The notes below the pieces were generated by a model. It was given only the letters and a program-made list of their open reading frames with translations, searched no databases and was not told the DNA's origin. A DNA stretch of 64,000 nucleotides, taken from NCBI GenBank assembly GCA_964616985.1, contig CAZTVF010000005.1, positions 6,771 to 70,770 of the forward strand, read 5' to 3'. This document shows, in pieces, positions 15,724 through 43,718 of this stretch (positions are counted from its first letter, which is position 1; every line of letters starts with the position of its first letter). The position numbers and the translations under genes are program-made. The stretch is from an uncultured Planctomycetaceae bacterium. Its GTDB lineage: Bacteria; Planctomycetota; Phycisphaerae; SM23-33.

Positions 15724-15744
15724 GGCGTCTTACAGGGGGGGGCT

Positions 15745-27729: not shown

Positions 27730-28824
27730 TTACATCCCGCACGCCTGCTTGAGGCGGCCGACGAAGTAGAGGAAGTCGCTGTAGCTCACGTCGTGCGGCA
27801 GGCCGTGGTCAAACCAGGGCACCAAGCCGCCCGCCTGCACCGTCCGAGCGATTTTGTCCATCTCGCGATCGATCGCGCCCCGCCCAGCCGCCAGCGCCTT
27901 TTTGTCCACGCCGCCCAGCATCAGCAGCCGGGGGTATCGCTTGCGGTATTCCCACACGTCCATGCCCGCCTGCGCCTCCATGGGCACCACGCCGTCGATG
28001 CCCGCCTCCAGCCAGATCGGGATGAGTTCATCGATATAGCCGTCGCTGTCGAGCACGATGAACGGAATGCCCTTCTGTCGCAGCTTGGCCACCATGCGGC
28101 GGTAGCGGGGGAGCATGAACTGCCGCACCTGCGGCGCGCCCAGCAGCGGGGCGGTCTTGTAGGCCATGTCCTCCCACAGGCAGACGGCGTCGGGCACGAA
28201 GTCGCTGAACATCGCGTCGCACAGCCGCTCGAACAGGTCCACCACCGTCTCCATCATCTCCTCGACCAGTGCGGGGTCGTCATAGAAGAGGTAGCTCGTC
28301 GCCTCCACGCCCATCATCTCGCGGATGGAGCCATACAGGCTGCCCGCGCGATCCATGTACACGATCAGGGGGGCCGTGCGCTGGCGCCAGGCTTCCTTCT
28401 GCCTCGCCCAGGCGTCCCCGACGCGGGCCTCGTCCCAGGCGATGCGGCCACGGTACTTGTCCCAATCGGCCCGCGAGGTCACGGGGAAGCTTTCGAAATG
28501 GGGCATCGACTTGTAGTTGTCCTTCTTGAACTCGGTGCAGACGATGCCGTTGTGGTTGACGTACGTGACCTTGTCTTCCGTCTCGCCGAGCACCTTCCGC
28601 TCGAAGGGCGGATACACCCAGATGCTGGCGGCGGGGCCTGACCAGAGGTGATGCTGCAGCCCCAGGTGGTCGATGAGGCGGGGGATGTCCTGTACGCCGG
28701 CGGGCATGCCCTCGCCGCGCCACCGCTCCAGCGTGCTGGGCCAGATGCCCCCCAACGTCGCCAGCGTGCGGCCGGGCGTCTGGAACCGCATCGCCCCCAG
28801 GAACGTCTCTCTCGCATTGTTCAT
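27730..28824 (-). CDS. uroporphyrinogen decarboxylase (URO-D) family protein, paralog 1
   Basis: It has a TIM-barrel UroD/MtaA-like pattern (...GVDKKALAAGRGAIDREMDKIARTVQAGGLVPWFDHGLPHDVSYSDFLYFV). It is a paralog of the ORFs at 39152-40141 and 41803-42804. Confidence 0.55.
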   Translation of the reverse strand: MNNARETFLGAMRFQTPGRTLATLGGIWPSTLERWRGEGMPAGVQDIPRLIDHLGLQHHLWSGPAASIWVYPPFERKVLGETEDKVTYVNHNGIVCTEFKKDNYKSMPHFESFPVTSRADWDKYRGRIAWDEARVGDAWARQKEAWRQRTAPLIVYMDRAGSLYGSIREMMGVEATSYLFYDDPALVEEMMETVVDLFERLCDAMFSDFVPDAVCLWEDMAYKTAPLLGAPQVRQFMLPRYRRMVAKLRQKGIPFIVLDSDGYIDELIPIWLEAGIDGVVPMEAQAGMDVWEYRKRYPRLLMLGGVDKKALAAGRGAIDREMDKIARTVQAGGLVPWFDHGLPHDVSYSDFLYFVGRLKQACGM

Positions 28825-28937
28825 GGCACTTCCCTTTGCGGCCATCAGGGCCGGGGACGAAGCCTAACCCCTCTCGCCGGGCGAGGTCAAGAATTGTCTG
28901 TTGACGCGGGGGAGCTTGTCGCGGTACGATTGGATGC

Positions 28938-28955
28938 GATGAATACGTATTCATC
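28938..28955. promoter_or_regulatory. perfect 18-bp palindrome GATGAATACGTATTCATC in the divergent UroD-like/IclR promoter region; candidate IclR operator
   Basis: It is perfectly self-complementary with an extra half-site GATGAATC 4 bp downstream. It lies about 20 bp upstream of the IclR-family gene start. Confidence 0.5.
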
Positions 28956-28976
28956 ATAGATGAATCGAGGCCGCGT

Positions 28977-29750
28977 GTGCCGGGCAGCCAGACAATTCAA
29001 TCGGTGGAGCGGGCGATGGACGCCCTTGAGCGCATCGCGCAGGCGCCGCAGGGCCTGACGCTGGCGGCGCTGGCGGCGGGGCTGGGCCTCAAGCCGCCCA
29101 CCGCGCACGCGATCCTGCGGACGCTCGCCGCCCGCGGCTACCTCCGCCGCCTGGACAAGCCCGCGCGGTACGCGATCGGGCCGGCTGCGGCGGCCTTGGC
29201 TGCGGCGGGCGCGCCGCTCCCCTGGCGCCAGGCCGCCCACGAGGCCATGGCCCGCCTCGCACGCCAGTTGCCCAAGGCCACCGTCGTCCTGGTGGAGGCC
29301 GTTGGCGGAGAGCTGATGACGACGCGGCGGATGAGCCCCGAGCAGCCGGGCGTCCTCCAGAAGCCCTCCCACCAGGTCATGTCGCCCTATTCCTCCGCCT
29401 CCGACCTGGCTTTTCTCGCCTTCGCGCCGGCCGATGCCGCGGCCAGCCATTGCCGCCGCTACCCCTTTGCCGAGTACGGCGCGCACCAGTGGCGCGGTGA
29501 GGCCGAGCTGGAGACCTTTCTCCAGCGGGCCCGCCGCCTGGGATACGCGCTGCGGGTGGACGCATTCTACCTCCTTCGGGCGGCCGCTCCGCTTCTGTCG
29601 CCCGAGGGCGAGCTGCTGGCGATGCTGGGGGTCTCGGCCCCCAAGGCCGGGATGACGCCGGCGATGAAGAAGAACATGATCGCCCGCCTGCTGGCGGCGA
29701 CCTCTGCGATCCATCAATCACTCAAACTTACCGCACAGGAGATCTCATGA
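28977..29750 (+). CDS. IclR-family transcriptional regulator
   Basis: It has an N-terminal wHTH (SVERAMDALERIAQAPQGLTLAALAAGLGLKPPTAHAILRTLAARGYL) and an IclR-type C-terminal effector domain. It uses a GTG start. Confidence 0.7.
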   Translation: MPGSQTIQSVERAMDALERIAQAPQGLTLAALAAGLGLKPPTAHAILRTLAARGYLRRLDKPARYAIGPAAAALAAAGAPLPWRQAAHEAMARLARQLPKATVVLVEAVGGELMTTRRMSPEQPGVLQKPSHQVMSPYSSASDLAFLAFAPADAAASHCRRYPFAEYGAHQWRGEAELETFLQRARRLGYALRVDAFYLLRAAAPLLSPEGELLAMLGVSAPKAGMTPAMKKNMIARLLAATSAIHQSLKLTAQEIS

Positions 29751-30757
29751 CGCTGACATCGGAATTCATCAAGAAGGAAGCACTCGCGCTGGGCGCCGAC
29801 GCCGTCGGCATCGGCAGCATCGATCGCTGGGCGGGGGCGCCCCTCCAGCAGGACCCGCGGCAGATCATGCCCGAGGCGCGGTCGGTCATCGCGCTGGCCT
29901 TTCGCGTGATGCGCGGCAGCCTGCGCGGCATCGAGGAGGGCACGTTCTTTTCAAACTATTCCGCTATGGGATACGGCGGCATCACGTACCTGTACATGCC
30001 GATGACGGTGATCAACGTCGCCAAGATCATCGAGGACGTCGGCTACGAGGCCATCCCGTATGGCCACCAGAGCGACTGGCGCGGCATCGATAACGTCGGG
30101 CAGACGTATGACCATTTCAGCCGTCCCGTCGCCCCCGGCCGCGCGGCCCCGGACGTGGCGGTGCATCTCCGCATCGCGGCGTACCTGTGCGGCCTGGGCG
30201 AGATCGGCTTCTCGAAGATGCTCCTGACGCCGCAGTTCGGGCCCCGGCAGCGCGTGGGCATCATCCTGACCGAGGCCGAACTGGAGCCCGACCCGATCTA
30301 CGCGGGCCCGCCGCTGTGCAACCGCTGCCTGGCGTGCGTCCGCGAGTGCCCCGGCAAGTGCTTCGACCCCTCCAAGACCGTGAAGGTCACGCTGGCCGGT
30401 CGCGAGGTCGAGTGGATGGACATCGACTGCAACGCCTGCGACGTCGCCTTCCGCGGCGCGGTGGTGGACGATTCGACGCCCCCGCAGGAGTCGTACATGG
30501 ACACCTTCGGCCACCGCACGCGGCCGGGGTCGTGGTCGCCGTTCTACAAGAAGCCTCGCAACCTCTACAACACCGGCCAGGCCGTCTGCGGCTCGCGAGG
30601 CTGCACGCGTGCGTGCATGATCTCGATGGAGTCTCGCGGGGTCGTGGCCAACAAGTTCCACCAGCCCTTCCGGCGGCGCAAGCCCTGGAGCATCGACTGG
30701 TCGCAGCCGCCGGCGGACGGTGAATCCACGGATGGTCTCAAGAGCGACACGGACTGA
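29747..30757 (+). CDS. QueG/reductive-dehalogenase-like iron-sulfur protein (DUF1730-like N-domain plus 4Fe-4S ferredoxin motif), paralog 1
   Basis: LGADAVGIGSIDRW...PEARSVIAL...YLCGLGEIGFSKMLLTPQFGPRQRVGIILTEAELEPDPI...PLCNRCLACVRECPGKC follows the QueG order (LGFDLVGI/ARSVI/LGWIGKN..ELEPD/CxxCxxCxxxCP). Additional Cys clusters lie downstream. Confidence 0.5.
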   Translation: MTLTSEFIKKEALALGADAVGIGSIDRWAGAPLQQDPRQIMPEARSVIALAFRVMRGSLRGIEEGTFFSNYSAMGYGGITYLYMPMTVINVAKIIEDVGYEAIPYGHQSDWRGIDNVGQTYDHFSRPVAPGRAAPDVAVHLRIAAYLCGLGEIGFSKMLLTPQFGPRQRVGIILTEAELEPDPIYAGPPLCNRCLACVRECPGKCFDPSKTVKVTLAGREVEWMDIDCNACDVAFRGAVVDDSTPPQESYMDTFGHRTRPGSWSPFYKKPRNLYNTGQAVCGSRGCTRACMISMESRGVVANKFHQPFRRRKPWSIDWSQPPADGESTDGLKSDTD

Positions 30758-30823
30758 AAGGGCGATGCGACCGGGCAAGCAGGGCGGCTCACCGTCGGTC
30801 GGTAGTAGTGCCCTGCAATACAA

Positions 30824-30944
30824 TATGTGAATGCGTGTGGCGGCGGCTTGCCGTTCGGCGCTGTCAGATATGGGTGACGGCATGGGCTTCTACAGCGCCG
30901 AACGGCAAGCCGGCGCCAAAGCCTTGCTCCAAGACTGAACCGTG
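30824..30944. repeat. ~115-bp long-stem hairpin element, copy A (21-23-bp perfect inverted repeat around a 29-nt loop)
   Basis: The stems are GGCGGCTTGCCGTTCGGCGCTGT ... ACAGCGCCGAACGGCAAGCCG. The conserved flanks are ATGTGAATGCGT upstream and CGCCAAAGCCTTGCTCC..AACCGTG downstream. The second copy at 33229-33350 has the loop reverse-complemented. Confidence 0.6.
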
Positions 30945-30970
30945 GAAAACTAATACAAGAGGTGAACGGG

Positions 30971-32014
30971 ATGAGCCTGAGCAGTGCGGACATCAAGAGG
31001 CGTGCGATGGAGCTTGGCGCCGACCTCGCCGGCATCGGGAACATCGAGCGATGGCAGGGGGCGCCGCGCCAGATGGACCCGCTGCAGATCATGCCCGAGT
31101 GCCGCAGCATCATCGTCATGGGCTTCCGCGTGCACCGCGGCACGCTGCGCGGCATCGAGGAGGGCACGATGTTCAGCAACTACGCGGCCATGGCGTACGG
31201 CGGCATCACGTACCTCCGCATGCCGCCGGTCATGTGGGGCCTGGCCGACATGATCGAGGATGAGGGCCACGAGGCCGCACCCATCGGCCAGATCGACTGG
31301 TGGCGAAGCTACGACGACGCCGGGCGCGTGTGGAAGGGCTTCAGCCGGCCTGTTGCCGAGGGCAAGGCCGCACCCGACGTGTCCATCCACACCCGCGTGG
31401 CCGCCTACCTCGCCGGCCTGGGCGAGTTCGGCTGGAGCAAGGTCTTCCTCACGCCGCAATTCGGCCCCCGGATGCGGTTCGGCATCGTGCTGACCGACCT
31501 GGAAGTGGAGCCGGATCCGATCTACGCCGGCCCGCCGCTGTGCAATCGCTGCATGGCCTGCGTCCGCGAATGCCCCGCCAAGGCCATCAGCCCCGACAAG
31601 AGCACCAAGGTCGTCCTGGCCGGCCACGAAGTGGAGTACGGCGAGTTCGACGCCATCCGCTGCTGCAACGTGTTCGGCGGCGGGGAGATTCCCGACGACC
31701 AGGCCTCGATCAAGAATGAGGATATTTACTCCTCCTGGCTGGGGCTCAAGTCCGTCCGGGGCTCGCACACGCCGTTCTGCAAGAAGCCCTCGCCCGTCTA
31801 TTGGACCGGCCAGGCCATCTGCGGCGGCAAGGGCTGCGTGCGGGCGTGCATGATGTCGCTCGAGGCCCGCAAGGCCGTGGGCAACCAGTTCAAGTCGCCC
31901 TTCCGCCGGCGCAAGCCGTGGTCCGTCGACTGGACGAAGGACGCCCCCGCAATCGAGGATCCCATCGCCGATTACCGTCCCCCGGCCGACCGCCCGGCCG
32001 AGGACTTTAGCTGA
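30971..32014 (+). CDS. QueG/reductive-dehalogenase-like iron-sulfur protein, paralog 2 (tandem duplicate)
   Basis: It is about 60% identical to the upstream ORF over its full length (MSLSSADIKRRAMELGADLAGIGNIERWQGAP...CNRCMACVRECPAKA). It has an RBS AGAGG. Confidence 0.5.
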   Translation: MSLSSADIKRRAMELGADLAGIGNIERWQGAPRQMDPLQIMPECRSIIVMGFRVHRGTLRGIEEGTMFSNYAAMAYGGITYLRMPPVMWGLADMIEDEGHEAAPIGQIDWWRSYDDAGRVWKGFSRPVAEGKAAPDVSIHTRVAAYLAGLGEFGWSKVFLTPQFGPRMRFGIVLTDLEVEPDPIYAGPPLCNRCMACVRECPAKAISPDKSTKVVLAGHEVEYGEFDAIRCCNVFGGGEIPDDQASIKNEDIYSSWLGLKSVRGSHTPFCKKPSPVYWTGQAICGGKGCVRACMMSLEARKAVGNQFKSPFRRRKPWSVDWTKDAPAIEDPIADYRPPADRPAEDFS

Positions 32015-32023
32015 AAACTGGCG

Positions 32024-32083
32024 TGGCGGCCTTGCGGGGCCGCCGCCAGAGCCCTGAGGGTGGCGGCCTTCGCAGGCCGCCGC
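32024..32083. repeat. two adjacent REP family 1 copies (variant GGCGGCCTTGCGGGGCCGCCGCC, then GGCGGCCTTCGCAGGCCGCCGCC)
   Basis: This is the sequence immediately after the Fe-S paralog 2 stop codon. Confidence 0.5.
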
Positions 32084-32148
32084 CCGTCATATGAGCAGCG
32101 ACAGAAGGCATAGCGCGATCGAACGCTTGACGCAACCGTAGAAGGCAC

Positions 32149-33204
32149 ATGATGACCAAGACAAGCGACAGCACGTTCCCGCGGTTCTCGGTCGGCTACC
32201 AGCTCGCCGAGGAGGGCGAAGAGTCGTTCGTTGACATCGTGAGCGACTACCGGCCGCACGTGGCGGAGGTGTACTTCCCGTGGGCCGCCATGCCCTCGGG
32301 GCGGGCCTCGCTGACCGAGCGGCGGGGCTACGTCGATTGGTCCGGCCAGGGGCGCCTGGAAGCTGACCTCAAGGCGCTGCGCGCGATGGGCGTGCGGCTG
32401 AACGTGCTGTTCAACGCGAACTGCTACGGCGGCAAGGCCGTCAGCGAGTACCTGCAGAACCAGGTAGCTTCGGTGATGGAACGCCTGCAGGAAGTCTGCG
32501 GCGGGGCCGACGTGGCCACCACCTGCTCGCCCGCCATCGCGCGGCTGATCAAGACGCACTTCGCCGCCACGCGGACGCGGGCGTCGGTCAACATGCGGAT
32601 CGGCACGGTGCAGGGCATGCAGTACGTGGCCGACATCTTCGACGAATTCTGCGTGCAGCGCGACTACAACCGCGACCTTGGCCGCCTGCGCCAGCTGCGC
32701 CAGTGGGCCGACGCGCACGGCAAGAGCCTGTCGATCCTGGTCAACAGCGGGTGCCTCGCCTTCTGCAGCGGGCAGACGTTCCACGACAACCTCGTCGCGC
32801 ACGAGCGCGAGGTGGATGAGAGCGTCAACGTCGCCGGGTGGTCACCCACGGTGTGCTGGGGGCTGCTGAAGGACAAGGCGAATTGGCCGGTGCTGCTGCA
32901 GTCCACGTGGGTCCGCCCCGAGGACATCGGCCAGTACCGCGGCCTGGTGGACATGGTCAAGCTGGCCACGCGGATGCACCAGCGGCCGCGGATGGTGATC
33001 GCCGCGTACGTGCGGGCCCGCCACCATGGAAACCTGCTGGACCTGATGGAGCCCGCCTTCTCGCCCGCGATCGCCCCGGCCGTCATCGAGAACGACCGCA
33101 TGCCCGCGGACTTCTTCGAGCGCACCAGCCAGTGCGATCGCCAATGCGACCGCTGCGGCTACTGCGCCGAGGCGCTGTCCAAGGCGCTGGTGACCCCGGA
33201 GTGA
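32149..33204 (+). CDS. hypothetical protein (Cys-rich C-terminus CDRQCDRCGYC; possible TIM-barrel enzyme)
   Basis: It is a 351-aa ORF with coding-like composition followed by a hairpin element. No confident family assignment was possible from the sequence alone. Confidence 0.3.
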   Translation: MMTKTSDSTFPRFSVGYQLAEEGEESFVDIVSDYRPHVAEVYFPWAAMPSGRASLTERRGYVDWSGQGRLEADLKALRAMGVRLNVLFNANCYGGKAVSEYLQNQVASVMERLQEVCGGADVATTCSPAIARLIKTHFAATRTRASVNMRIGTVQGMQYVADIFDEFCVQRDYNRDLGRLRQLRQWADAHGKSLSILVNSGCLAFCSGQTFHDNLVAHEREVDESVNVAGWSPTVCWGLLKDKANWPVLLQSTWVRPEDIGQYRGLVDMVKLATRMHQRPRMVIAAYVRARHHGNLLDLMEPAFSPAIAPAVIENDRMPADFFERTSQCDRQCDRCGYCAEALSKALVTPE

Positions 33205-33228
33205 GAGCTCGTAGTTCGTAACACTCCA

Positions 33229-33350
33229 GTATGTAAATGCGTCTGGAGGCGGCTTGCCGTTCGGCGCTGTAGAAGCCCCAGGGCGTCACCCATACCTGAC
33301 AGCGCCGAACGGCAAGCCGCCGCCAAAGCCTTACTCCCAGATTCAACCGT
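33229..33350. repeat. ~115-bp long-stem hairpin element, copy B (loop inverted relative to copy A)
   Basis: It has the same stems and same-orientation flanks as copy A. Its loop AGAAGCCCCAGGGCGTCACCCATACCTG is approximately the reverse complement of the copy-A loop CAGATATGGGTGACGGCATGGGCTTCTAC. Confidence 0.6.
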
Positions 33351-33359: not shown

Positions 33360-34769
33360 CTACGCCTTCACCGGCGGGCGGGTGAAGGGGCGGCGGGGCA
33401 GGGAGGTCGCCGTCTGGTATCGCCCGGGCGTGATGTGCTCTTCACCGATCACGCCGCCAGCGGCGAGCAGGTGCTGCTGCAGCATCGCGACGGGAAGCTG
33501 GCGGGGCGTGACGCCCTGGCGGATGGAAAGAGCCGCCGCGGCGCCGGCGGCCTCGCCCGTGCCCGCGCACTGGGCCATCACCCGCGTGGAGCCCAGGGCG
33601 ACGTGCGTGACGCTGATGCAGCGCCCGGCCACGAGGATGTTCTCGATCTTCCGCGGGACCAGCACGCGGTAGGGGATGTGGTAGCGGAAGCCCGTTCGCG
33701 GCCGCCACGTCGTGCCGTCCATGCCGGGCCCGTCGATGCGGTGGATGTCGATGAAGAACGAGCCGTAGCAGATGTTGTCGTCGAAACGGCACTCCTTCAT
33801 GATGTCCTGCTCGGTCAGGACGTACTCGCCCATGATCCGCCGCGACTCGCGCAGGCCGATCGTGTTGGGCGTCGAGACAAGGTAGCACTCCTCCATGCCG
33901 GCGACGTACTTGCGGAAGACGTCGATGCAGTGGAAGGCCTGGCGTCGGGCCTCGATGGTCGCGCGCGTCAGGTCCTCGGCCTTGGTCGTGTCGATGCCGT
34001 TGACGTGCGTGAAGTTGATGCCCACGAAGTGCGGCTGCGACGAATTCCACCAGAAGCCCATGATGCAGTGCTGAAAGGGCTCCATGTCGCCGTTCTGCTG
34101 GGCCTTCTCCCACACGTGGTTCATGCCGTAGCTCTGCTTGCCGTCGGGCCCGACGCGCCACGCCTCGACCTTCGCCCAATCGACGCCGCCGATGGTGAAC
34201 ATCAGCGTGACGGGCTGGCACTTGTGGTCGCCGGGGCGGCCGACTTCAAACTCGCAGCCGGCCGAGGCGGCGAGGTCGCCGTCGCCGGTGCAGTCGACGA
34301 GGCGCTTGGCGAAGACGGCCTGGCGGCCGGTCTTGTTCTGGATGACCGCCCCGACGGCGGCGCCGTCGCGGACGATCGCGCCGCACAGGAAGGTGTGGTA
34401 GAGGATCTCAACTTTCGACTCGAGCATCATCCGCTCGAGGAGGAACTTGAGCCCCTCGACGTCGAAGAACGCGCCGCCGGGGTAGCGGTCGCCGAAGCCC
34501 TCGTCGCAGACGCGGTCGACGATCTCAGCGGCGATGCCGCCGACGATGCGGTCCTGGTCGCCCCAGCTGGAGTAGATGGCCATGTAGCCGTGCCCGCCGG
34601 CCCCGGCCACGCCGCCGAGGCAGTTGAACTGCTCGACCAGCAGCGTGCGCTGCCCCAGCCTGGCCGCCGCCAGCGCCGCAGCCACGCCCGCCGGCCCGCC
34701 GCCGGCCACCACAACGTCATACTCGCCCTTGACGGGCAGTTCCCTGGCCTCTTCGAAATACCGCTGCAT
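33360..34769 (-). CDS. FAD-dependent oxidoreductase (FAD_oxidored / glucose-inhibited-division-like Rossmann family)
   Basis: It has the dinucleotide-binding motif YDVVVAGGGPAGVAAALAAARLG and a C-terminal GTGEAAGAAAAL motif. The start was set at MQRYFEE. Confidence 0.65.
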   Translation of the reverse strand: MQRYFEEARELPVKGEYDVVVAGGGPAGVAAALAAARLGQRTLLVEQFNCLGGVAGAGGHGYMAIYSSWGDQDRIVGGIAAEIVDRVCDEGFGDRYPGGAFFDVEGLKFLLERMMLESKVEILYHTFLCGAIVRDGAAVGAVIQNKTGRQAVFAKRLVDCTGDGDLAASAGCEFEVGRPGDHKCQPVTLMFTIGGVDWAKVEAWRVGPDGKQSYGMNHVWEKAQQNGDMEPFQHCIMGFWWNSSQPHFVGINFTHVNGIDTTKAEDLTRATIEARRQAFHCIDVFRKYVAGMEECYLVSTPNTIGLRESRRIMGEYVLTEQDIMKECRFDDNICYGSFFIDIHRIDGPGMDGTTWRPRTGFRYHIPYRVLVPRKIENILVAGRCISVTHVALGSTRVMAQCAGTGEAAGAAAALSIRQGVTPRQLPVAMLQQHLLAAGGVIGEEHITPGRYQTATSLPRRPFTRPPVKA

Positions 34770-34771
34770 GC

Positions 34772-36070
34772 TCACTCCTTGCACTTGAGGAAATCAGCCG
34801 CCATCTTGCCGGTGAGGGACTTTCCCGGGGTCCTGGCGGCGAGATCCTCGAGAAATTTAGCCATATCGGGCTTCAGTACGCCTTTGTCGCTGAAGAAGCC
34901 GGGGCCGCCCTTCTGGGCGAAGGCGCCGGCGAAGACGCCCAGTGTCGCCACTGCCGCCGAGGCCTTGGGTTCCTTCTTCGCCGCGGCCAGGGCGTCGGCG
35001 ACCTCCTTGGCCTTGGGATGGCCGTTGAGCTGCCGCGTGAAGATGGGCCCGTAGTACGCGCTGAGCGACGGGTCATGCTGGGCAAGCTCCTTCGTCAGCT
35101 CGACGACCTTGTCGACCCGGGCCTCGATGACCTTCTGCAGAGCGACGGCCTTTTCCTTCACATCGGCGGGGAGCTTCTCATCGGCGACGACTTTAGTGAT
35201 AGCGGCGCTGGCCTTGCCCAGTTCCAGAGCGTTGGCTTGGGCAACGATGGGCTTGAGCTCCTTCTGCGTGTAGTCCGGCGCGTAGAGGAAGGCGCAGAAG
35301 GCCAGGTCGCTGCGGCGAAAGACCCACGCGGAGGCATCGATGTCTTCGCCGGAGATGGAATGTCCCTTGCCTTTCTGGATGTGCAGGTAGATATCCGGGT
35401 TCGTGGCGCCCTTGGCGGCGCGGCCGAAAAGCTCCTGCGCTCGCTGCGGCTGGGAGGCCCCCAGCGTAGGCCGGCCGGCGTTCCACTCCTCGGTGCCCAA
35501 GGCGATCAGCCAGCTCAGCCGCGGGCAGGCGCCGGAGACGGACGTCCAGAGGTTGGAGCTGTACGGGGCCGAGTGGTTGAACTGGAAGCCGGGGGCGTCG
35601 CCCTTGCCGTACTTGTCCAGGAACAGGCCATGGATGAGCCCGCCGCCGGAGAAGGAACTGATCACGCCGCGGCCGGGGATGATCTTGTAGTCCGCCTGCA
35701 CCTGGGCGATCGCTTCGAGGGCAACCTTGAGCTTGCCGTCGGAGTCTTTGGCGTTATCCCCGTCGAGGTACGACATCTTGATGCCGATGAGATTGAACTT
35801 GTCGAGGAACTGGCCCGGCCCGTAGCCGCTAGCGGCCTCGGCGTTGCCCTTGCCCTGGCCGTGGAAGAAGATGTAGATGCCGGCCGGGTTGTCGGCGCTG
35901 TACGTCTTGGGGACGTGGACCCAGTACTGGTAGTCGGGGTTGGCGGTCGTGAACTTGAACGAGCCCGTCTTGCCCGCGTTTTCCGACGGTTTGGGCCCGC
36001 CCAGCAAGGGGGAGGCGGTGAGGCACAGGATGGCCAGGAGCGTGACAAGGAACGCGGGGGGCAAACGCAT
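34772..36070 (-). CDS. secreted alpha/beta-hydrolase (esterase-like)
   Basis: It has a signal peptide (MRLPPAFLVTLLAILCLTASPLLG), GIYIFFHGQGKG and a SFSGGG nucleophile-elbow-like motif. The assignment is tentative. Confidence 0.45.
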   Translation of the reverse strand: MRLPPAFLVTLLAILCLTASPLLGGPKPSENAGKTGSFKFTTANPDYQYWVHVPKTYSADNPAGIYIFFHGQGKGNAEAASGYGPGQFLDKFNLIGIKMSYLDGDNAKDSDGKLKVALEAIAQVQADYKIIPGRGVISSFSGGGLIHGLFLDKYGKGDAPGFQFNHSAPYSSNLWTSVSGACPRLSWLIALGTEEWNAGRPTLGASQPQRAQELFGRAAKGATNPDIYLHIQKGKGHSISGEDIDASAWVFRRSDLAFCAFLYAPDYTQKELKPIVAQANALELGKASAAITKVVADEKLPADVKEKAVALQKVIEARVDKVVELTKELAQHDPSLSAYYGPIFTRQLNGHPKAKEVADALAAAKKEPKASAAVATLGVFAGAFAQKGGPGFFSDKGVLKPDMAKFLEDLAARTPGKSLTGKMAADFLKCKE

Positions 36071-36096: not shown

Positions 36097-38946
36097 TTAC
36101 TTCGCCGGGGCCGAAGTGGGCGGCTCGGCGGCAGGCGTCATTATAACGCGTCCCATCCGCTCGGGCACGTGGTTATTGTTGCTGTGGACGGGCGACCACA
36201 TGGATCGTTCCATGCCGTACATGTGACGCGTGCGGATGACGTTGAAGGCAATCTTCTGCCCGGTGGCGGCGTCCTTAACGCCCAAGGTCTTCCAGGGGAT
36301 GGCGACTGTGAGCGTCCAGGACGTGGCGTCCTTGTCCGCGTGGACCTGCCAGGGGCCGTTCCAGTTGGCGTCCCAGACCTCGCCCTCGTACTGCGTGCCG
36401 ATGGAATTGGCGACGAACTGGAAATAAGTCATGGCACCGGCGTTGGGGTCGACGAAGATCTCGACACTGTCCTCGTTGTACACCGCCCCGTCGTGCTGCG
36501 TGACAGATGGCCTCATGTTCGCCAAGATCTTCTTATCTTCGAAACAACGGATGCTGAGGTATAGGGCATTGGCGTCGTGCAGCAGCCGCACCTCAGTGGG
36601 CTGGGCCGCGTTGGCGTCCCCCGTGGCGTTGACGAAGCCCGGCAGGGCCGACGCCTTCGCCCAGGCAGGGTCTTTGAGGCCATCCTCGATCTTGGGCCCC
36701 TTGGCCACCGCCGGGCACAGGGCGCGGGGCTGGCGGGCCAGCGCGACCGCTCGCGCGTCGATATTCACCGGCGGCTGCACCAGCGCGTTGGCGTCGGCTG
36801 CGAGGCCGACCGATACCACCGGGTGCGGCTGGACTTCGGCCGGGTTGCCTTCAAAGGCCAGGGCGAAGGACACCTCCCGCGATTCGCCCGCGGCAAGGTT
36901 GGCCTCCGCCCGCAGGGGCGAGACCTTCCAGCGGCAGTTGGCTGGCAGCGTCCACACAGCCGCCTGCGCCGCCGGCTGGGATGTCGCATTCCGCAGCGGC
37001 ACCTTCACGGTACCGCAGACGGCGCCCGTTTCATCGCTGACGGCGAAGTCGCGGGCCGTCAGCGGCCGGACATATTGCAGCCCGCCGCCCGGTGGGACGT
37101 CGATCACCACGCGGATGCCGGCCGTGGACAACGGTTGCCGATCGGCGTTGAGCGGGCGACGCTGCGCCGAACGTCCGCCACGCGCGACCTTTCGGTCGGT
37201 GGCTGCCGGCCCGGCGGGGTCTACGGCCGGGCTGAAGGCATAGTAGTCCTTGGCGTACCAGTCGGCACACCAGTCCAGGCCTCCGTGCATGCCGTAGAGG
37301 CCCCAGGGGTTGGGCAGCGGCATCACGTCGAAGTCGTGCTGCAGGGCCGGCTTGTCCCCGAACGACCATCGCTCTGGCGTGCCGGCGCGGGCGGCGTATT
37401 CCCACTGCGCCTCCGTCGGCAGATGTGCGCGCAGGCCCGTCTGCAGCGAAAGGCGGCGGCAGAAATCGGCCGCCTGCTGCCAAGTCAACTCGGCGGGCAT
37501 CCTCGCCGCCGCCTGCTCGATCGCCGTCACCACGCTCGGCGACAGCTTGACGTCTGTGGCCTGGCCGCTGACACCATCGGGCGTCTGGCCGGGAAGGTGC
37601 CCCATCACAGCGCAGTACTGCGCACCGGTCAAGCGGGAGGCGCTGATGTAGAAAGGCTTCGACAGCGTCACTTCGTGCTGCGGTCCTTCATCGGCCTCTC
37701 GCTGGGCCTCGTCGGCGGGCGAGCCCATCGTGAACTTTCCCGCGGGCACGAGCACCAGCGGCATCAGCACGCCTCCGGCCAACTCGAGGGATTCGGCCTT
37801 CGGAGCATTGGGGCCGCAGGCCAGGGCGGCCGCCGCCTGCATCATGGCGGCACGCGCGATGGCCGCCAGGCGAGGATTGGCGCCCGCGGAGGCCTCCACC
37901 GTTTTGAGGGCCTCCACGGCGGTCGGCGAGCCAAGCACTGAAAGGACGCGGACCGAGCGCAGGGAGGTCATCTCCTTGGCCTGCACCTGCACGGCCTCAC
38001 GGTCCAGCAGTTCCTGCAGGCGCGCGCGGACCTCTTCGGACTCGGTAGTCTTGAGGGCTTCTCGCAGCAGCGGGGCGGCGACAGGTCCGATCTTGGCGAG
38101 GGCGTCCGACGCGGCCTTGCGATTGGCGAACTCATCGGCGTCCAGCTGTGTCACGAGCTTGGCGACCATGGCGGCATCGACCCCGCCGCTGGCATGCTTG
38201 GCGGCGATGAACTTCGCCGCCGCGTCGCCGGCGGCCACGAGGGACCATTGCGCATCGATCCCAACCGGCGCGGGCTCGCCCAGCCTGGCCCACAGCACTT
38301 CCATCTGCGATTTGGTAAGGTCCACGACCGCGGCGATGGCTTCGACCCGCACGTTGTCCAGCCCCCAGGCGATGATGCTACCGCCCGCGCCCTGGCCTTC
38401 GCAGACGAGGTTCGCTTCGGGGGCCTCGTGCGGCAGGACGACACTGACCTGGTGAATCGTGTTGTAGCTGGGCTCGTGGCCCCGGCTGTTGAGGGAGAGC
38501 TTGTCCCTGGCCGCCGGCTTGGGGTTGAGCTCATCGATCAACGTGAGGCTGCCGGCCGTCGCATCGGATCCCGTGAAGGTCAGACGTGTCAGCAGCTGTC
38601 CGCCGCCCGTGCGAAGCGACCACGACGAACTGCTGGAGGGAAAGCTCATCAGCATGTATACATCGAGCGTCATCCGCAGGAACTTGTGCGGCGGGAGATT
38701 GTGAAGCGAAAGGGTCGGCCCCGCGTTCTCGAAGCGGCCCAGGAAGGTCCGCTTGATCCCGGAGGCGTTCTCGCGGCGGTCGCTGGACCACTCGCTGCCG
38801 ACGCCGGCGGCGAAGTTGGATTCATAGACGAGCGTCTCGCCGCTGGTTCGCGACGAGGCTGCCGCCTTGGGGGCCTGCGCCTCGGCGGCCGAGAACACCG
38901 CCGCCAGCAGCGCGAAAGCACAAACGCTCCAACCTGCGATCCGCAT
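36097..38946 (-). CDS. secreted multidomain protein with formylglycine-generating-enzyme (FGE/SUMF1 sulfatase-maturase) domain and C-terminal CBM9/DOMON-like domain
   Basis: It has a signal peptide. The FGE block reads LVPAGKFTMGSPADE...GPQHEVTLSKPFYISASRLTGAQY...WQQAADFCRRLS...LPTEAQWEYAARAGT...WGLYGMHGGLDWCADWY. The C-terminus ...DANALYLSIRCFEDKK...YNEDSVEIFVDPN...YFQFVANSIGTQYEG... resembles CBM9. Confidence 0.6.
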   Translation of the reverse strand: MRIAGWSVCAFALLAAVFSAAEAQAPKAAASSRTSGETLVYESNFAAGVGSEWSSDRRENASGIKRTFLGRFENAGPTLSLHNLPPHKFLRMTLDVYMLMSFPSSSSSWSLRTGGGQLLTRLTFTGSDATAGSLTLIDELNPKPAARDKLSLNSRGHEPSYNTIHQVSVVLPHEAPEANLVCEGQGAGGSIIAWGLDNVRVEAIAAVVDLTKSQMEVLWARLGEPAPVGIDAQWSLVAAGDAAAKFIAAKHASGGVDAAMVAKLVTQLDADEFANRKAASDALAKIGPVAAPLLREALKTTESEEVRARLQELLDREAVQVQAKEMTSLRSVRVLSVLGSPTAVEALKTVEASAGANPRLAAIARAAMMQAAAALACGPNAPKAESLELAGGVLMPLVLVPAGKFTMGSPADEAQREADEGPQHEVTLSKPFYISASRLTGAQYCAVMGHLPGQTPDGVSGQATDVKLSPSVVTAIEQAAARMPAELTWQQAADFCRRLSLQTGLRAHLPTEAQWEYAARAGTPERWSFGDKPALQHDFDVMPLPNPWGLYGMHGGLDWCADWYAKDYYAFSPAVDPAGPAATDRKVARGGRSAQRRPLNADRQPLSTAGIRVVIDVPPGGGLQYVRPLTARDFAVSDETGAVCGTVKVPLRNATSQPAAQAAVWTLPANCRWKVSPLRAEANLAAGESREVSFALAFEGNPAEVQPHPVVSVGLAADANALVQPPVNIDARAVALARQPRALCPAVAKGPKIEDGLKDPAWAKASALPGFVNATGDANAAQPTEVRLLHDANALYLSIRCFEDKKILANMRPSVTQHDGAVYNEDSVEIFVDPNAGAMTYFQFVANSIGTQYEGEVWDANWNGPWQVHADKDATSWTLTVAIPWKTLGVKDAATGQKIAFNVIRTRHMYGMERSMWSPVHSNNNHVPERMGRVIMTPAAEPPTSAPAK

Positions 38947-39151: not shown

Positions 39152-40141
39152 TCAGGCGCCTCCAGCGGCGACAAACGCCTCGTAGGCCCAGTCGTCCCAC
39201 TCGTTCTTGACGCCGATGCCGGGCAGGTCGGGATAGTTCTTGGCGATCAGGCCGCCGCGGAACGTATCCACCATGCGGCGCGTCTCGCGCTCGATCAACT
39301 CGCGGTCGCCCGTCGGCAGCACCTTCTGGATATCGCATGGCGAGTACAGCCCAACGCCGTGCTTGCGCAGTTTGGCCGCCAGGGCCGGCAGATCGTACAC
39401 GGCCGGCTGATCGAACTGCAGGCAGTCGATGCCCGCCTCGCACAGGTCGTCCACCAGGGCCCAGTTGTAGCCGCACGAGTGCTGGATCACCTTCATGCCG
39501 TACTGATGGGCCTTGCCCGTGAGACGCTCGTACAGCGGGCGGAAGATGTCTCGCCACATGGCCGGGCTCATCAGGGTGCGGTCCTGGATGCCCAGGTCCT
39601 CGCAGAACATGATGCCGTCAACGCCGGCCTTGCCGTACTGCTCGATCACGCCCTCCAGCATCGTGGTGACGCGGTCGTGGAGGATGTCGATGCGCTCGCG
39701 TTCCTCGATGAGGTCGAGGAAGTAGATCTCCATCTTCCGCAGGTAGCGGCAGGTGGCGAAGGGCCAGCCGGGCATCCAGCCCAGGCGGAAGCGGTCGGTA
39801 CCCGAGGCGGCCAGGTCGCGGGCGCCCTGGAAGAAGGCGGGGTTGGCCAGGTCCGGCAACTGCAGGCCCTCGAGCTTGTCCCACGTGTCCAGGGCGGGCT
39901 TGAAGATCTCGCCGCCCTGCGACATGCCCGAGATGCGGTGCCACACGTTGCCCCAGGCGTCGGTGCGAAACTCGATCTCGCCCTCCGTCCACACCTCGGC
40001 TTTGAAGCCATCGTTGACCCCGCAGCCGGCGAAGTCGTTGCGGCGGTCGCGGTCGAAGTTCAGGCCGATGCGCTCTTCGCAGCGGCACTCGATGTTCTGG
40101 CGAATCACTTCACGCGGGGTCAAGGGCATCGCGGGCTCCAT
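39152..40141 (-). CDS. uroporphyrinogen decarboxylase (URO-D) family protein, paralog 2
   Basis: It is homologous to 27730-28824 and 41803-42804 (...IFRPLYERL...GMKVIQHSCGYNWALVDDLCEAGIDCLQFDQP...). Confidence 0.55.
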   Translation of the reverse strand: MEPAMPLTPREVIRQNIECRCEERIGLNFDRDRRNDFAGCGVNDGFKAEVWTEGEIEFRTDAWGNVWHRISGMSQGGEIFKPALDTWDKLEGLQLPDLANPAFFQGARDLAASGTDRFRLGWMPGWPFATCRYLRKMEIYFLDLIEERERIDILHDRVTTMLEGVIEQYGKAGVDGIMFCEDLGIQDRTLMSPAMWRDIFRPLYERLTGKAHQYGMKVIQHSCGYNWALVDDLCEAGIDCLQFDQPAVYDLPALAAKLRKHGVGLYSPCDIQKVLPTGDRELIERETRRMVDTFRGGLIAKNYPDLPGIGVKNEWDDWAYEAFVAAGGA

Positions 40142-40189: not shown

Positions 40190-41761
40190 TCAAGCCTTCC
40201 TCGCGGCCGAGTCGCTGCGGCCATAGGCGTGCAGCCGGAATCGGCACAGGGTGAGGCGGTCGTGCAGCACCACGCCGGTGCCGTGGCAGGACTCGTCGCC
40301 GTTGAGGCGGCGGGTGGCAAGGAACTCGCCGCTGGCATAGCGGCCCTCGTCCGATTCCAGGATCTCCGCCGCGACCAGCGAGCCGTCCGTCGGCTCGGAG
40401 GTGAAGATGATGTTGTAGCCCATGGCCAGGAATACCCCGCCGCCAAGCGATACCAGCAGGGCCGAGCCGGGCACGGCACACTCGGCCAGCTTGCGGCTGG
40501 TCCGCGGCCGCAGGCGGAAGCCATCCAGTTCCACCATCCACGACTCGTCATCGGCCTGTTGCAGGAAGCCCGCGGTCCTGCCCTGGGCCGCCGCCTCGGC
40601 CAGGGGCGGCCCCATCTCTCGAAGTGCGGCATACACGTCGGCCAGCGGGTGGGGGGCCTTCATTGCGTCAATGCCGAACGGCGCGAACCCGATGGCCCCG
40701 TGCTGCCCGATCGCGTAGAGGCACTTGGCCGCGGCGGCGGGCGTGGCGTTGGTCTCGGGGACGAACAGCGGGTTGTCCTCGCGGGCATAGTCGGCCGCGT
40801 GGTGGCGGAAGTCAGGCTGGTAGATGTCCGGCGCCAACAGGGCGATGCTCGGCGCCGCGGCCCGCCAGATTTCGTACACCTTGGTTACCGGCCCGCCGCT
40901 GGGATACTGTCCGGGCTTGTAGCCCGGCCCGGCGATCAGCCACGCGTTGGCGTACATCGGCAGGTCGTACTCGGCCTTGCCCGCGCGGGCCATCTGCTCC
41001 ACGTACCGCGCCACGTGCCAGGCCATGAATACTTCGTCGGCCTCGCCCGCGAAGACCTCGGCCCACGTGCCCTGCATGCGTGCGCCCGCGGCATCCCACG
41101 CGTCGCGGATGGGCGCACTGAGCCGGTCGCGGCGCCGGGCCAGGTGCGACATCAACTCCGCCGGCACGGCCTGGGCGAACGCCGCCTCGGCCGCGGCCGA
41201 GCGGTCGCGGGCGATCGACAGCACGCCTGTCTCGTTCTCCACCTGCACCATCAGCACGGTGTGGCGGTCGGCGTCGATCTGGCCGATGCGTCTCATCACC
41301 GCCGCGAACGCCCGGGCGTCGGCGGCCAGCACGGCGGGGCTGAACATGCTCAGCGTCCAGCTGGGCTTGCCCGCTTCGCCCTCGGCACGGGGGAATCGCT
41401 TGAGGTCGGTTTTCACCCACGCGGGGGCGTAGCAGGAGATCGCGTTCTTCATCGCCCCGAACCACAGGAACACCAGGTGCAGCCCGCGGCTGCGGCACGA
41501 CTCGACGATGCCCTCGAGCAGCGTGAAATCGAACCGGCCTTCGACGGCCTCGACGAGGTCCCAGTACAGCGGCAGGATGGCCAGGTTGGAGTTTAGGCTC
41601 ACCAGGCCGTCGAGCACCGGCTGGATGTACTCGAGGTTGGACCCCGAGCTGTTGTTCGTCTGCCCGCCCAGCAGGATGCTCGGCCGCCCTTCAATCACCA
41701 GTTTGCCTCGCCCGCCGGCGGTCTGTGCGGGCGGGATGATCTTGATCCAGTCGTGGCTCAT
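40190..41761 (-). CDS. clan GH-A glycoside hydrolase (GH35/GH42-like TIM barrel), 523 aa
   Basis: The catalytic acid/base-like block HTVLMVQVENETG matches the GH35-type QxENE motif, and the upstream FDFTLLEGIVESCRSRGLHLVFLWFG is TIM-barrel-like. The track ORF 40190-42736 carries a spurious 325-aa extension, and the start was set at MSHDWIKII. Confidence 0.5.
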   Translation of the reverse strand: MSHDWIKIIPPAQTAGGRGKLVIEGRPSILLGGQTNNSSGSNLEYIQPVLDGLVSLNSNLAILPLYWDLVEAVEGRFDFTLLEGIVESCRSRGLHLVFLWFGAMKNAISCYAPAWVKTDLKRFPRAEGEAGKPSWTLSMFSPAVLAADARAFAAVMRRIGQIDADRHTVLMVQVENETGVLSIARDRSAAAEAAFAQAVPAELMSHLARRRDRLSAPIRDAWDAAGARMQGTWAEVFAGEADEVFMAWHVARYVEQMARAGKAEYDLPMYANAWLIAGPGYKPGQYPSGGPVTKVYEIWRAAAPSIALLAPDIYQPDFRHHAADYAREDNPLFVPETNATPAAAAKCLYAIGQHGAIGFAPFGIDAMKAPHPLADVYAALREMGPPLAEAAAQGRTAGFLQQADDESWMVELDGFRLRPRTSRKLAECAVPGSALLVSLGGGVFLAMGYNIIFTSEPTDGSLVAAEILESDEGRYASGEFLATRRLNGDESCHGTGVVLHDRLTLCRFRLHAYGRSDSAARKA

Positions 41762-41802: not shown

Positions 41803-42804
41803 TTAGTGCCGGGTGCTCCCGGCCAGTTGGCAGTAGTGTTTGAGCAGGCGGACGTAGGTGTGGAAGTCGGCGAGGCTGACGCCGGGCGGGGTCTGGTGGT
41901 CGGTGGAGGGAAGGAAACCGCCGCTGCGCATGACGGGCAGGAGGCGTTCGCACTCGGCCGTGATGGCGGCCTCGCCCAGGTGCGTGACGGTCTTGTCGAA
42001 GCCGCCGATCATCCGCCACGTGGGGTAGAGGCGGCGGAGTTCGGCCACGTCCACGCCGGCCATCCGCTCCAGCGGCAGGCAGCCTTCGATGCCGGCCGCC
42101 TGCATCCAGGGCACGACGGGCATGACGTCGCCGTCGGTGTCGACCATGGGGATCACGCCCGCCTGCTTGAGCCGCGGCACGATGCGGCGGTAGCGGGGGG
42201 CGATGAACTCGTCGAACTGCTCGCGGCTGAGCATCGGGCCGTGGTTGTAGGAGAGGTCCTCGGCGAAGGTCAGCACGTCGGGGGCGAGGATCGCCAGCAC
42301 CTGGTCGAGGACGGCATTGTTCCAGCGGCACAGGTCGTCGTTGATGCGGTGCATGAGGGCCGGCTGGTCGTAGAAGGCGAAGAGGTGGGGCTCGACGCCG
42401 AAGATCTCGCGCGGGAACCAGAAGAAACCGTCGATCTGCATCCAGACCACGACGTCGCCCGTGGCCTGGGCGGCGGCGATGCGGCGGAGATTGGCCGTAT
42501 CCAGAACGGGCGCCTGCCGCAGCGTGGGCGCGACGACGCGTTCGTAGTCGGCCTCGCTGTCGATGTAGCCCGCGCTGCGGGGCCTGTCGGCCGGGCGGGG
42601 CAGGGTCCACCGCGGGCTGATCCACACCCATTCGTTGACGGCCAGGCCGAAGTGCCGCAGCGTGTCCTCGCGCGAGAGCTTGGGCAGCCCCTCGCCGCAC
42701 CATCGCTCGAGCGTCTTGTCCCACCAGGAAATCCATTCCATCGCCGGCAGGGCGCCCGCCGGCTGGAAGTTCATGAGGGCCTTGAACTGCTGGCGGATGT
42801 TCAT
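41803..42804 (-). CDS. uroporphyrinogen decarboxylase (URO-D) family protein, paralog 3
   Basis: It is the third homolog (...FDEFIAPRYRRIVPRLKQAGVIPMVDTDGDVMPVVPWMQAAGIEGCLPLE...). It overlaps the nucleoside hydrolase stop by ATGA. Confidence 0.55.
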   Translation of the reverse strand: MNIRQQFKALMNFQPAGALPAMEWISWWDKTLERWCGEGLPKLSREDTLRHFGLAVNEWVWISPRWTLPRPADRPRSAGYIDSEADYERVVAPTLRQAPVLDTANLRRIAAAQATGDVVVWMQIDGFFWFPREIFGVEPHLFAFYDQPALMHRINDDLCRWNNAVLDQVLAILAPDVLTFAEDLSYNHGPMLSREQFDEFIAPRYRRIVPRLKQAGVIPMVDTDGDVMPVVPWMQAAGIEGCLPLERMAGVDVAELRRLYPTWRMIGGFDKTVTHLGEAAITAECERLLPVMRSGGFLPSTDHQTPPGVSLADFHTYVRLLKHYCQLAGSTRH

Positions 42805-43718
42805 CGTGTGGCCTCCGCTCCCATCACGGTCGAAAGGAACAGCTCGCGCAGGCCCGGCGCGTTGGCTTCGGTGGTGACGTGGATGCTGGCGCCGTTGCTG
42901 CCGGCGACGGTCATGCCGCGGGTGCAGTCGCCGCGCGTCTCCACGCGGATGGACATCGGCTGCGTCTTATAGAACGTGCGGTCGAAGGCGTGCACCATCG
43001 GGAACAGGTCGTACATCACCGGCCCGGGTTTCCAGTTCTGGCCCGGATGCCACACGTCGATCGCCTTGCCCATCGCGATCGCCAGGGGGGAACGGCTGCG
43101 GCGGAAGACGTCGCATTCGGCCATCGTCAGCGTGAACTGTCGCGTCACGCTCCAGGTGCCCATGTGGATCGGCACGCCGCTGGTCAGCACGATGTCCGAC
43201 GCGACGTAGTCGTACGCCACGTTATGCTCGCAGCGGTTGAGGACCATTTCACCGCCCATCATGGCGATGTATTGGATCTTGCCCGCAATGTCGGGCCGCC
43301 TCCGCAAGGCCGTCGCGATGTTCGTCAGCGGGCCGATGCACGCCAGCACGATCTCGCCCGCGTTCTGCTCCACGGTGCGGATGATGAGGTCCACCGCGTC
43401 CTGCCCGGAGGGATCGTCGATCGCTTCCTCGGGCAGGGCGAAGGCGTAGTGGTTCATCGACCGCGACATGTCGTGCTGCTCGGCGAGCTCCTGGGGGCCC
43501 ACCGGCCGCAGGGGCAGTTCCATGCCCGCCGCTACGGGGATGTCATCGCGGCCGAGATATCGCAGCAGTCGCTTGACCAGCCTCACCCGCTTGTCGCTGG
43601 GCCAAGTGACGGTCGTGATCGCCTTGATCTGGAGCTCCGGGCGGAGCGCCGCGAACCATATCGCCAGGAGGTCGTCGATGTCCTGGCCCGGATCAGTGTC
43701 GATGAGAATTCTCTGCAT
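42801..43718 (-). CDS. inosine-uridine-preferring nucleoside hydrolase family protein
   Basis: The N-terminal ILIDTDPGQDIDDLLAI is the IUNH aspartate-cluster signature. Confidence 0.75.
   Translation of the reverse strand: MQRILIDTDPGQDIDDLLAIWFAALRPELQIKAITTVTWPSDKRVRLVKRLLRYLGRDDIPVAAGMELPLRPVGPQELAEQHDMSRSMNHYAFALPEEAIDDPSGQDAVDLIIRTVEQNAGEIVLACIGPLTNIATALRRRPDIAGKIQYIAMMGGEMVLNRCEHNVAYDYVASDIVLTSGVPIHMGTWSVTRQFTLTMAECDVFRRSRSPLAIAMGKAIDVWHPGQNWKPGPVMYDLFPMVHAFDRTFYKTQPMSIRVETRGDCTRGMTVAGSNGASIHVTTEANAPGLRELFLSTVMGAEATR

Follow-up and report, generated by a model that had tools for sequence, protein, structure and literature searches.

The 64-kb window studied here (64,000 nucleotides of contig CAZTVF010000005.1 from an uncultured Planctomycetaceae bacterium; all coordinates are counted from its first letter) contains a gene for an IclR-family regulator (28977-29750, plus strand; 257 amino acids (aa), GTG start), which is followed by two paralogous genes for Fe-S proteins resembling reductive dehalogenases (RdhA) and the epoxyqueuosine reductase QueG, designated below as R1 and R2. 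The stop codon of the regulator gene and the start codon of R1 (29747-30757, plus strand, 336 aa) share the tetranucleotide ATGA at 29747-29750, exactly as noticed in the initial annotation of this DNA, and R1 is proposed to be translationally coupled to the regulator gene. R2 (30962-32014, plus strand) is an open reading frame (ORF) of 350 aa with the likely start at ATG in position 30971, which gives 347 aa and matches the database protein P0001 (347 aa). The next gene on the same strand (32149-33204) encodes a divergent U32-fold Fe-S protein of 351 aa, recognized by fold comparison, conserved cysteines and adjacency to R. It was absent from the initial annotation, which described a two-gene reductase unit; the reductase pair is indeed there, but its most conserved partner is this U32-like gene. 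On the other side the regulator gene is faced by a divergent UroD-like (MtaA/CmuA-like) gene on the minus strand (27730-28845; PF01208, E = 1.7e-10), the start of which is separated from the operator described below by 93 nt. The G+C content of the cassette region is 66%. As judged from sequences and structural models, the regulator, R and the U32-like protein rather probably form a redox cassette that is complete in itself, controlled by a ligand and found repeatedly among anaerobic bacteria.

Operator and promoter of the regulator gene

Both genes flanking the divergent region have Pfam matches that agree with the expected UroD-like and IclR identities, and the 18-bp sequence GATGAATACGTATTCATC located between them at 28938-28955 is fully self-complementary, as had been claimed. 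It is the sole match in 64 kb even if 3 mismatches are allowed, and no matches were found in 100 shuffles. The extra half-site noticed beside the palindrome is also present: GATGAAT at 28959-28965 forms, together with the middle arm, a second inverted repeat ATTCATC-ATA-GATGAAT. The operator as a whole (28938-28964, no strand assigned), delimited by sequence, conservation and co-occurrence with IclR genes, thus has the architecture GATGAA-N6-TTCATC-N3-GATGAA, with three alternating hexamers (forward, reverse, forward) at 28938-28943, 28950-28955 and 28959-28964 and centre spacings of 12 and 9 nt. A consensus scan registered a sigma-70-like promoter, TTGACG-18 nt-TACGAT, at 28901-28930 of the plus strand. 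It stops 7 nt short of the first hexamer, and 12 nt separate the last hexamer from the GTG start of the regulator gene, which aligns with the ATG of its 77%-identical ortholog in a close relative (locus L086). Since the array lies directly downstream of the -10 box, autorepression can be argued, and from the position of the site the IclR protein is presumably an autorepressor.

The regulator itself scores above Pfam cutoffs with both PF09339 (HTH_IclR, 51.8 bits) and PF01614 (IclR_C, 28.9 bits). None of the NCBIfam equivalogs reached its cutoff with this protein, the best one being BhcR (66 bits versus 350). The half-site contains TGAA and in this respect resembles the KdgR box, a likeness that may serve as a lead only and not as a test.

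Conservation of the operator among relatives

In a scan with one genome per species, at least 574 genomes were found to encode a relative of the paralogs, and 80 loci from this species-level scan, supplemented with loci from metagenome look-ups, were taken for analysis. When palindromes were searched for without bias in the DNA preceding the cassettes, GATGAA/TTCATC half-sites came up repeatedly, namely in Spirochaetales, Lentisphaerota, Planctomycetota, Verrucomicrobiota and Armatimonadota. Exact TTCATC-N3-GATGAA or GATGAA-N6-TTCATC was registered 17 times within 400 nt upstream of cassettes and only twice in the rest of the 81 loci (1.12 Mb). Sites with at most one mismatch number 40 in 31.5 kb of cassette-upstream DNA versus 16 in 1.16 Mb elsewhere, which means approximately 90-fold enrichment. 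The motif also follows the regulator: it was present in 22 loci with an adjacent IclR gene and missing in 8, while among loci without such a neighbour these numbers were 4 and 47, respectively (Fisher p = 1.3e-9). A more sensitive search found IclR genes adjoining 33 loci. All four loci with the motif and no IclR gene are lone R genes in metagenome-assembled genomes of Lentisphaerota and Verrucomicrobiota, where the site occupies positions -74 to -96; such an arrangement is what one would expect if the regulator acted in trans.

The same three-half-site layout was observed in at least eight other loci (L025, L028, L041, L056, L063, L066, L070 and L076), and the succession of CTTGAC, -10 element, operator and start codon was found also in L019, L038, L039 and L045. 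In the IclR-containing loci without the exact motif, CTTGAC and the -10 element are followed by a palindrome with variant half-sites and then by the start codon, and variant half-sites in the same position are the pattern expected of co-evolving regulator-operator pairs. The close relative L086, where IclR is 77% and R1 at least 90% identical to the proteins of the window, has the operator GATGAACAAGTATTCATCATAGATGAAAC. Its -35 box (GTCT.TTGACG.GGGGG) and the three hexamers are kept, and the spacer, the -10 region and the bases between hexamers differ. Because the hexamers are preserved while the intervening bases drift, the functional unit appears to be the hexamer array, and the perfection of the 18-mer would be incidental. 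Thus the initial proposal of the 18-mer as an operator was right as to the site and wrong as to the unit, for which three GATGAA hexamers should be taken. The more general suggestion of an IclR-type regulator with its own operator gained support from the cross-phylum conservation of the site and its co-occurrence with the IclR gene, and we infer that the IclR protein binds the GATGAA array at its own promoter.

Attempts to extend the regulon were less productive. Additional operator sites elsewhere in the loci were few (L017, L074) and uninformative. The UroD-like gene at 27730-28845 is a possible candidate member of the regulon, but it was rejected as a conserved partner of the cassette: such genes are found near it in about five loci only and are non-orthologous paralogs (elsewhere they occur in L015, L065, L006 and L086, and identity to the L086 copy is 25%). 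Three UroD-like (MtaA/CmuA-like) paralogs with 27-30% mutual identity lie within 15 kb on the minus strand of the window (27730-28845, 39152-40141 and 41803-42804).

A related half-palindrome near 16352 had been suspected of marking another member of the regulon. The sequence ATGATAATGAATACGAATGA is indeed present at approximately 16352-16371, but it does not qualify as a regulon site because of the wrong half-site spacing and its position in a gap between convergent genes. TATTCAT-GATA-ATGAATA has the operator heptamers with half-sites 1 nt closer, and it does not match either of the two operator patterns even at 2 mismatches. Other ATGAATAC 8-mers (13316 and 41025) are within coding sequence. 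The non-coding gap that harbors this motif (15724-16577, about 850 nt) also holds a small RNA (sRNA), registered as an Rfam Acido-Lenti-1 sRNA match at 16051-16096 of the plus strand (54.9 bits versus the gathering score of 37), several hairpins of similar kind (GTCCCGTAGGGAC; CCCAGCACT...AGTGCTGGG) and a stretch rich in A+T. The Acido-Lenti-1 RNA, the best orthologs and the G+C content of 66% would by themselves suggest a metagenome-assembled genome of Planctomycetota or Lentisphaerota as the source of the DNA.

Family placement of the R proteins

As was initially supposed, the paralogs are QueG-like/RdhA-like proteins with the CxxCxxCxxxCP motif and further cysteines, which were traced in an alignment of 32 sequences. 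Both of them carry C-x2-C-x2-C-x3-C-P and four more family-conserved cysteines, i.e. C194-x2-C197-x2-C200-x3-C204-P plus C234, C287, C292 and C296. C194, C197, C200, C204, C234, C292 and C296 are invariant, and C287 is nearly so (Gly in two sequences). The core of R is therefore followed by two [4Fe-4S]-type cysteine motifs, as in the superfamily of RdhA, QueG and CblC. The AlphaFold2 (AF2) model of R (predicted local distance difference test score, pLDDT, 84) has the nitroreductase-like corrinoid-binding fold of this superfamily, and Foldseek found PceA and NpRdhA at 1e-9, QueG at 1e-7 and CblC at 6e-4. The best matches among PDB sequences came in the same order, PceA and NpRdhA first and then QueG, and covered the core of the superfamily together with the first ferredoxin motif. 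Most probably R holds a base-off corrinoid and two [4Fe-4S] clusters, as suggested by its sequence and predicted fold. The organism as such does use corrinoids, which is shown by a B12-binding radical SAM protein (PF02310 and PF04055) encoded in the window at 51529-53100 of the minus strand.

Family models assign R1 and R2 to neither of the two named groups. With QueG TIGR00276 they score 27.3 and 30.3 bits versus the cutoff of 200, in a local match of about 65 aa, and Pfam QueG_DUF1730 matches neither of them (R1 not even at E <= 10). With the reductive dehalogenase (RDH) model TIGR02486 the scores are 42.0 and 52.9 bits versus the cutoff of 160, again in local matches, and there is no match to Pfam Dehalogenase in either protein. 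The C-terminal helical (HEAT-like) tRNA-binding domain of QueG was not found in R, neither in the AF2 model nor as a HEAT match in Pfam: residues 240-350 of the model form short strands, two helices with cysteines of the second cluster and a basic coil tail. Since the hidden Markov model (HMM) cutoffs were not reached, the tRNA-binding domain is missing and the conserved partner is a separate protein, R is not queG proper. The initial annotation came to the same opinion, but it argued from tandem duplication, and this reasoning did not survive (see below). From sequence and modelled fold, the paralogs should be assigned to a family of their own, as yet without a name, within the RdhA/QueG/CblC superfamily. 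In the database clustered at 90% identity it has 1646 matches, and 266 representatives at 50% identity score with the R profile at E <= 1e-30. No description of the R family or of its pairing with U32-like proteins was found in Pfam, NCBIfam or searchable literature.

U32-like protein as a partner of R

In 65 of 85 loci R has the U32-like gene as its immediate neighbour on the same strand. If only loci with at least 1.6 kb on either side of R are considered, adjacency is found in 43 of 51 (about 84%; the script gave 42, and L008, in which the gene overlaps R, was added by hand). This neighbourhood spans Lentisphaerota, Planctomycetota, Armatimonadota, Verrucomicrobiota, Spirochaetales, Chloroflexota and Clostridia, in the orders IclR-R-U32, R-IclR-U32 and IclR-U32-R. 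In Clostridia IclR is replaced by a divergently transcribed regulator of AraC type. Clustering of all ORFs from 81 loci revealed R, U32, IclR and AraC as the only recurrent families. In the cultured bacterium Oligosphaera ethanolica DSM 24202 (locus L050) a canonical QueG-like gene (DUF1730 and Fer4_16, 415 aa, 7950-9197) and a gene for an APH-type kinase are situated directly upstream of the R-IclR-U32 cassette.

Homologs of the U32-like protein bear the JGI label “collagenase-like PrtC family protease”. A profile of its family found no match among PDB sequences, and the link to U32 is therefore based on fold comparison. The AF2 model (pLDDT 89) gave Mk0906 (5d88) as the top Foldseek hit, with E = 4.5e-8 and a TM score of 0.71 on the target, the next ones being generic TIM barrels with E >= 1.6e-4. 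Weak sequence similarity to Pfam PF01136 (Peptidase_U32) can be traced in relatives, of which 7 out of 28 match (best E = 4e-4), and the Armatimonadota ortholog scores 21.2 bits versus the cutoff of 22.4. Invariant cysteines of the family are C92, C202, C206 and C236 and the C-terminal set C329-x3-C333-x2-C336-x2-C339. The product of 32149-33204 is thus predicted, with the help of the structural model, to be a divergent U32-fold Fe-S protein with two conserved four-cysteine sets.

Different histories of R1 and R2

The paralogy of R1 and R2 was confirmed, with identity of 56% and not about 60% as given before. The assumption of their tandem duplication had to be abandoned. R1 is nearer to its orthologs in other phyla (median identity 67%, up to 76%) than to R2 and belongs to the mainstream subfamily of the RdhA/QueG-like family. 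R2 groups with only four species-level genomes (68-73%) in a small, separate and divergent subclade. Since R1 is closer to orthologs from other phyla and R2 has a subclade of its own, the two genes did not arise by tandem duplication and, on sequence evidence, appear to be anciently diverged copies. Locus L086 carries IclR-R1-U32 without the second paralog. More than one copy of R is not a peculiarity of the window: tandem R genes were registered in L018, L059 and L079, and the representative library includes fused proteins of approximately 725-836 aa (about 770 aa; P0255, P0260, P0265, P0270 and P0298), in which two or three modules resembling R are joined and DUF1730-like and Fer4 segments are repeated. 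Tandem and fused copies suggest that R modules may act as hetero-oligomers.

R2 and the U32-like gene are bracketed by two plus-strand copies of a repeat element of about 150 nt, located at 30800-30945 (between R1 and R2) and 33206-33350. Its stem GGCGGCTTGCCGTTCGGCGCTGT is perfect over 23 bp, the folding energies are -64.5 kcal/mol for copy 1 (z = -7.0) and -62.6 kcal/mol for copy 2, and z is about -7 to -8. The flanks of the two copies are collinear and the 27-nt loop is inverted, as if recombination between the arms had turned it around. None of the 87 loci retrieved contains the element. One more structured region, a GC-rich double hairpin (32018-32090, plus strand; -54.6 kcal/mol, z = -3.9), separates R2 from the U32-like gene. 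The U32-like protein is 56% identical to its L086 copy, i.e. substantially less than IclR and R1, and this difference indicates that the locus was rearranged downstream of R1.

Proposed function and alternatives

Based on the near-constant association of the U32-like gene with R, one can assume that their products most likely form one two-component enzyme or catalyse consecutive steps. In the cassette so understood, IclR bound to the three-half-site array would block initiation until a small-molecule effector releases it, and the promoter would then drive the regulator gene together with the coupled cytoplasmic R enzyme. By analogy with RdhA and QueG, R may use Co(I) to eliminate a leaving group reductively from a small organic compound, with cleavage of a C-O or C-halogen bond, and the U32 partner may contribute Fe-S-based oxygen-transfer or dehydration chemistry, or serve as an electron relay.

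The initial annotation had left the substrate of these regulated reductase genes unassigned. IclR and its operator upstream of them agree with regulation, and the glycan context is the only pointer to the substrate. The neighbours of the cassette vary: in the window it is accompanied by GH35, DUF5597, FGE-sulfatase/CBM9 and rhamnogalacturonan-lyase-like proteins, and in other loci by GH123, sulfatases, GH29, GH42-like, GH10, NamZ, GH88, BNR sialidase-like and DUF4838 proteins. These neighbours, together with the sugar-type AraC regulator in Clostridia, suggest that both substrate and inducer are probably a small glycan-derived metabolite. The FGE-sulfatase and CBM9 domains belong to a 949-aa protein encoded at 36097-38946 of the minus strand, and DUF5597 is found in a glycoside hydrolase (GH)-like protein at 40190-41761 of the same strand, for which the listed ORF is merged with the upstream frame. 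FAD-dependent oxidoreductases of the PF12831 family are encoded in the window at 33360-34784 (minus strand) and 55361-57733 (plus strand) and are 36% identical to each other; 5 further loci likewise have a member of this family (cluster 8) at a distance of a few kb from the cassette.

Several observations weigh against this interpretation and should be considered together. About 16% of complete loci have no adjacent U32-like gene, and neither a conserved transporter nor a further pathway enzyme was found beside the cassette by ORF clustering in 81 loci. The U32-like protein of the window has no match to PF01136, and the cluster motif C-x6-C-x15-C-x3-C of characterised U32 oxidases (PMC11574389) was not found in it. 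The position of PceA Y246 and NpRdhA Y426 aligns to R only within a segment of 4.9 bits, where the residue is Y, F or H, and binding of cobalamin by R is deduced from the fold and the superfamily signature only. The hairpin of -64.5 kcal/mol between R1 and the R2 and U32-like genes leaves co-transcription of the latter two from the IclR promoter as a candidate; their control by this promoter is plausible from the arrangement of the genes. Finally, the glycan-derived nature of substrate and inducer is drawn from genomic context only.

Among other explanations, the R proteins could be catabolic reductive dehalogenases acting on natural organohalogens, with the U32-like protein as an accessory and IclR as a sensor of a halogenated compound. 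R is in fact slightly nearer to RdhA than to QueG, both by identity (26-28% to PceA versus 19% to QueG) and by scores with the respective models (42-53 versus 27-30 bits), and R172, one of many invariant non-cysteine positions, aligns with the catalytic R305 of PceA and with K488 of NpRdhA, so that a basic residue is always preserved there. Cytosolic rdhA-like genes beside IclR/MarR regulators have been described in cold-seep metagenome-assembled genomes (PMC12219181). Nevertheless, the scores fall far short of the 160 bits required by the RDH model, and the Pfam Dehalogenase model is not matched. The R proteins (336-350 aa) begin directly at the core (MTLTSEFIKKEALALGAD...) with no RR motif and no twin-arginine translocation (TAT) signal, and neither RdhB nor a fused NAD(P)H reductase was found, the conserved neighbours being only IclR or AraC and the U32-like gene. 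We know of no rdh operon with a U32 partner, and members of the family are often met in Clostridia of gut and rumen and in bacteria from digesters, where glycoside hydrolases surround them, which is not an obvious niche for organohalides. Dehalogenation as the function of R seems therefore unlikely.

Another idea is that a nucleobase or nucleoside serves as the substrate of the pair, in RNA modification or in salvage or catabolism of a modified nucleoside. It comes from the fact that the best-characterised relatives of both partners modify RNA bases: QueG works at position 34 of tRNA, and TrhP and RlhA of the U32 family have tRNA and rRNA as their targets (PMC5175355; PMC6599085). Some neighbours fit this idea as well, namely the canonical QueG-like gene of Oligosphaera ethanolica mentioned above, genes for DNA/RNA non-specific endonucleases convergent to or following the cassette in two Lentisphaerae loci (L052, 12753-13760; L066, 6942-7976), and a nucleoside hydrolase gene in the window itself (42801-43718). 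Such nucleic-acid-related neighbours are, however, sporadic, R is below the QueG models and without the tRNA-binding C-terminal domain, and ligand-type regulators (IclR/AraC) as well as multiple copies of R would be unusual for housekeeping RNA modification. This possibility is thus considered doubtful.

A similarly low probability can be given to the distribution of roles in which the U32-like protein is the catalyst, an O2-independent oxidase or hydroxylase, and R serves chiefly as a redox partner to it or as a CblC-like cofactor handler. Characterised U32 enzymes do work as pairs (UbiU-UbiV) and need electron acceptors or partners yet to be found, the U32-like family looks larger than R (3750 versus 1646 database matches), and the fold of R is common to the B12-processing CblC. 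Yet R keeps the full substrate-side core, the invariant arginine at the RdhA catalytic position and many other invariant non-cysteine residues, and lone R genes stand behind the operator with no U32 gene adjacent. That the palindrome is a chance inverted repeat or belongs to a factor other than IclR is highly improbable: 8 loci with an adjacent IclR gene do lack a near-exact GATGAA motif, but they hold variant-half-site palindromes in the same position after a TTGAC/-10 promoter, and the uniqueness of the site in the window, its upstream enrichment and strong co-occurrence with IclR all contradict this assumption.

Returning to the cassette in which R and the U32-like protein work together, we tentatively suggest that they constitute a new two-component cobalamin/Fe-S system, i.e. 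a third functional branch of the RdhA/QueG superfamily with a U32-type partner for which there is no precedent. This system may carry out a hitherto undescribed anaerobic transformation of a metabolite derived from glycans or nucleosides, for instance its deoxygenation or the reductive cleavage of a C-O bond. To our knowledge, reductive dehalogenation and epoxyqueuosine reduction are the only established reactions of the RdhA/QueG superfamily, and the chemistry of U32 enzymes, as far as we know, is not yet settled. A third RdhA/QueG-like branch coupled to a divergent U32 protein in a widespread and regulated cassette would point to new B12/Fe-S chemistry. Hosts of the cassette include Clostridia of the human and animal gut and anaerobes of rumen, digesters and sediments. 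The dedicated regulator with a defined operator, or AraC in Clostridia, offers a handle for finding the inducer and hence the substrate.

Comparison with known systems

The regulator shares the HTH_IclR and IclR_C architecture with IclR, KdgR, PcaU/PobR and BhcR, and likewise has inverted half-sites at its own promoter. It differs from them in the three-half-site array with centre spacings of 12 and 9 nt and in the position of its gene, which in many genomes is found between the two enzyme genes. The U32-like protein has the TIM-barrel U32 fold, four invariant barrel cysteines and a partner protein in common with the U32 “oxidases” (UbiU/UbiV, TrhP, RlhA) and Mk0906. Its cysteine pattern is different (C92...C202-x3-C206...C236) and is supplemented with the C-terminal C-x3-C-x2-C-x2-C, and, unlike UbiU/UbiV, it is associated with an RdhA-like protein and not with a second U32.

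Compared to RdhA proteins (PceA of Sulfurospirillum and Dehalobacter; the catabolic NpRdhA/BhbA), R is only about 340 aa long, dispenses with the TAT leader, the RdhB anchor and the reductase fusion, and has a second cluster motif of the form C...C-x4-C-x3-C. It has a conserved U32-like partner, is accompanied by IclR or AraC instead of CprK or MarR-type RdhR, and resides in fermentative glycan degraders. QueG differs from R by its DUF1730 Pfam match and tRNA-binding C-terminus, both absent from R, which, in contrast to QueG, is regulated and multi-copy. The B12-processing proteins CblC/MMACHC match R much more weakly and have no Fe-S module.

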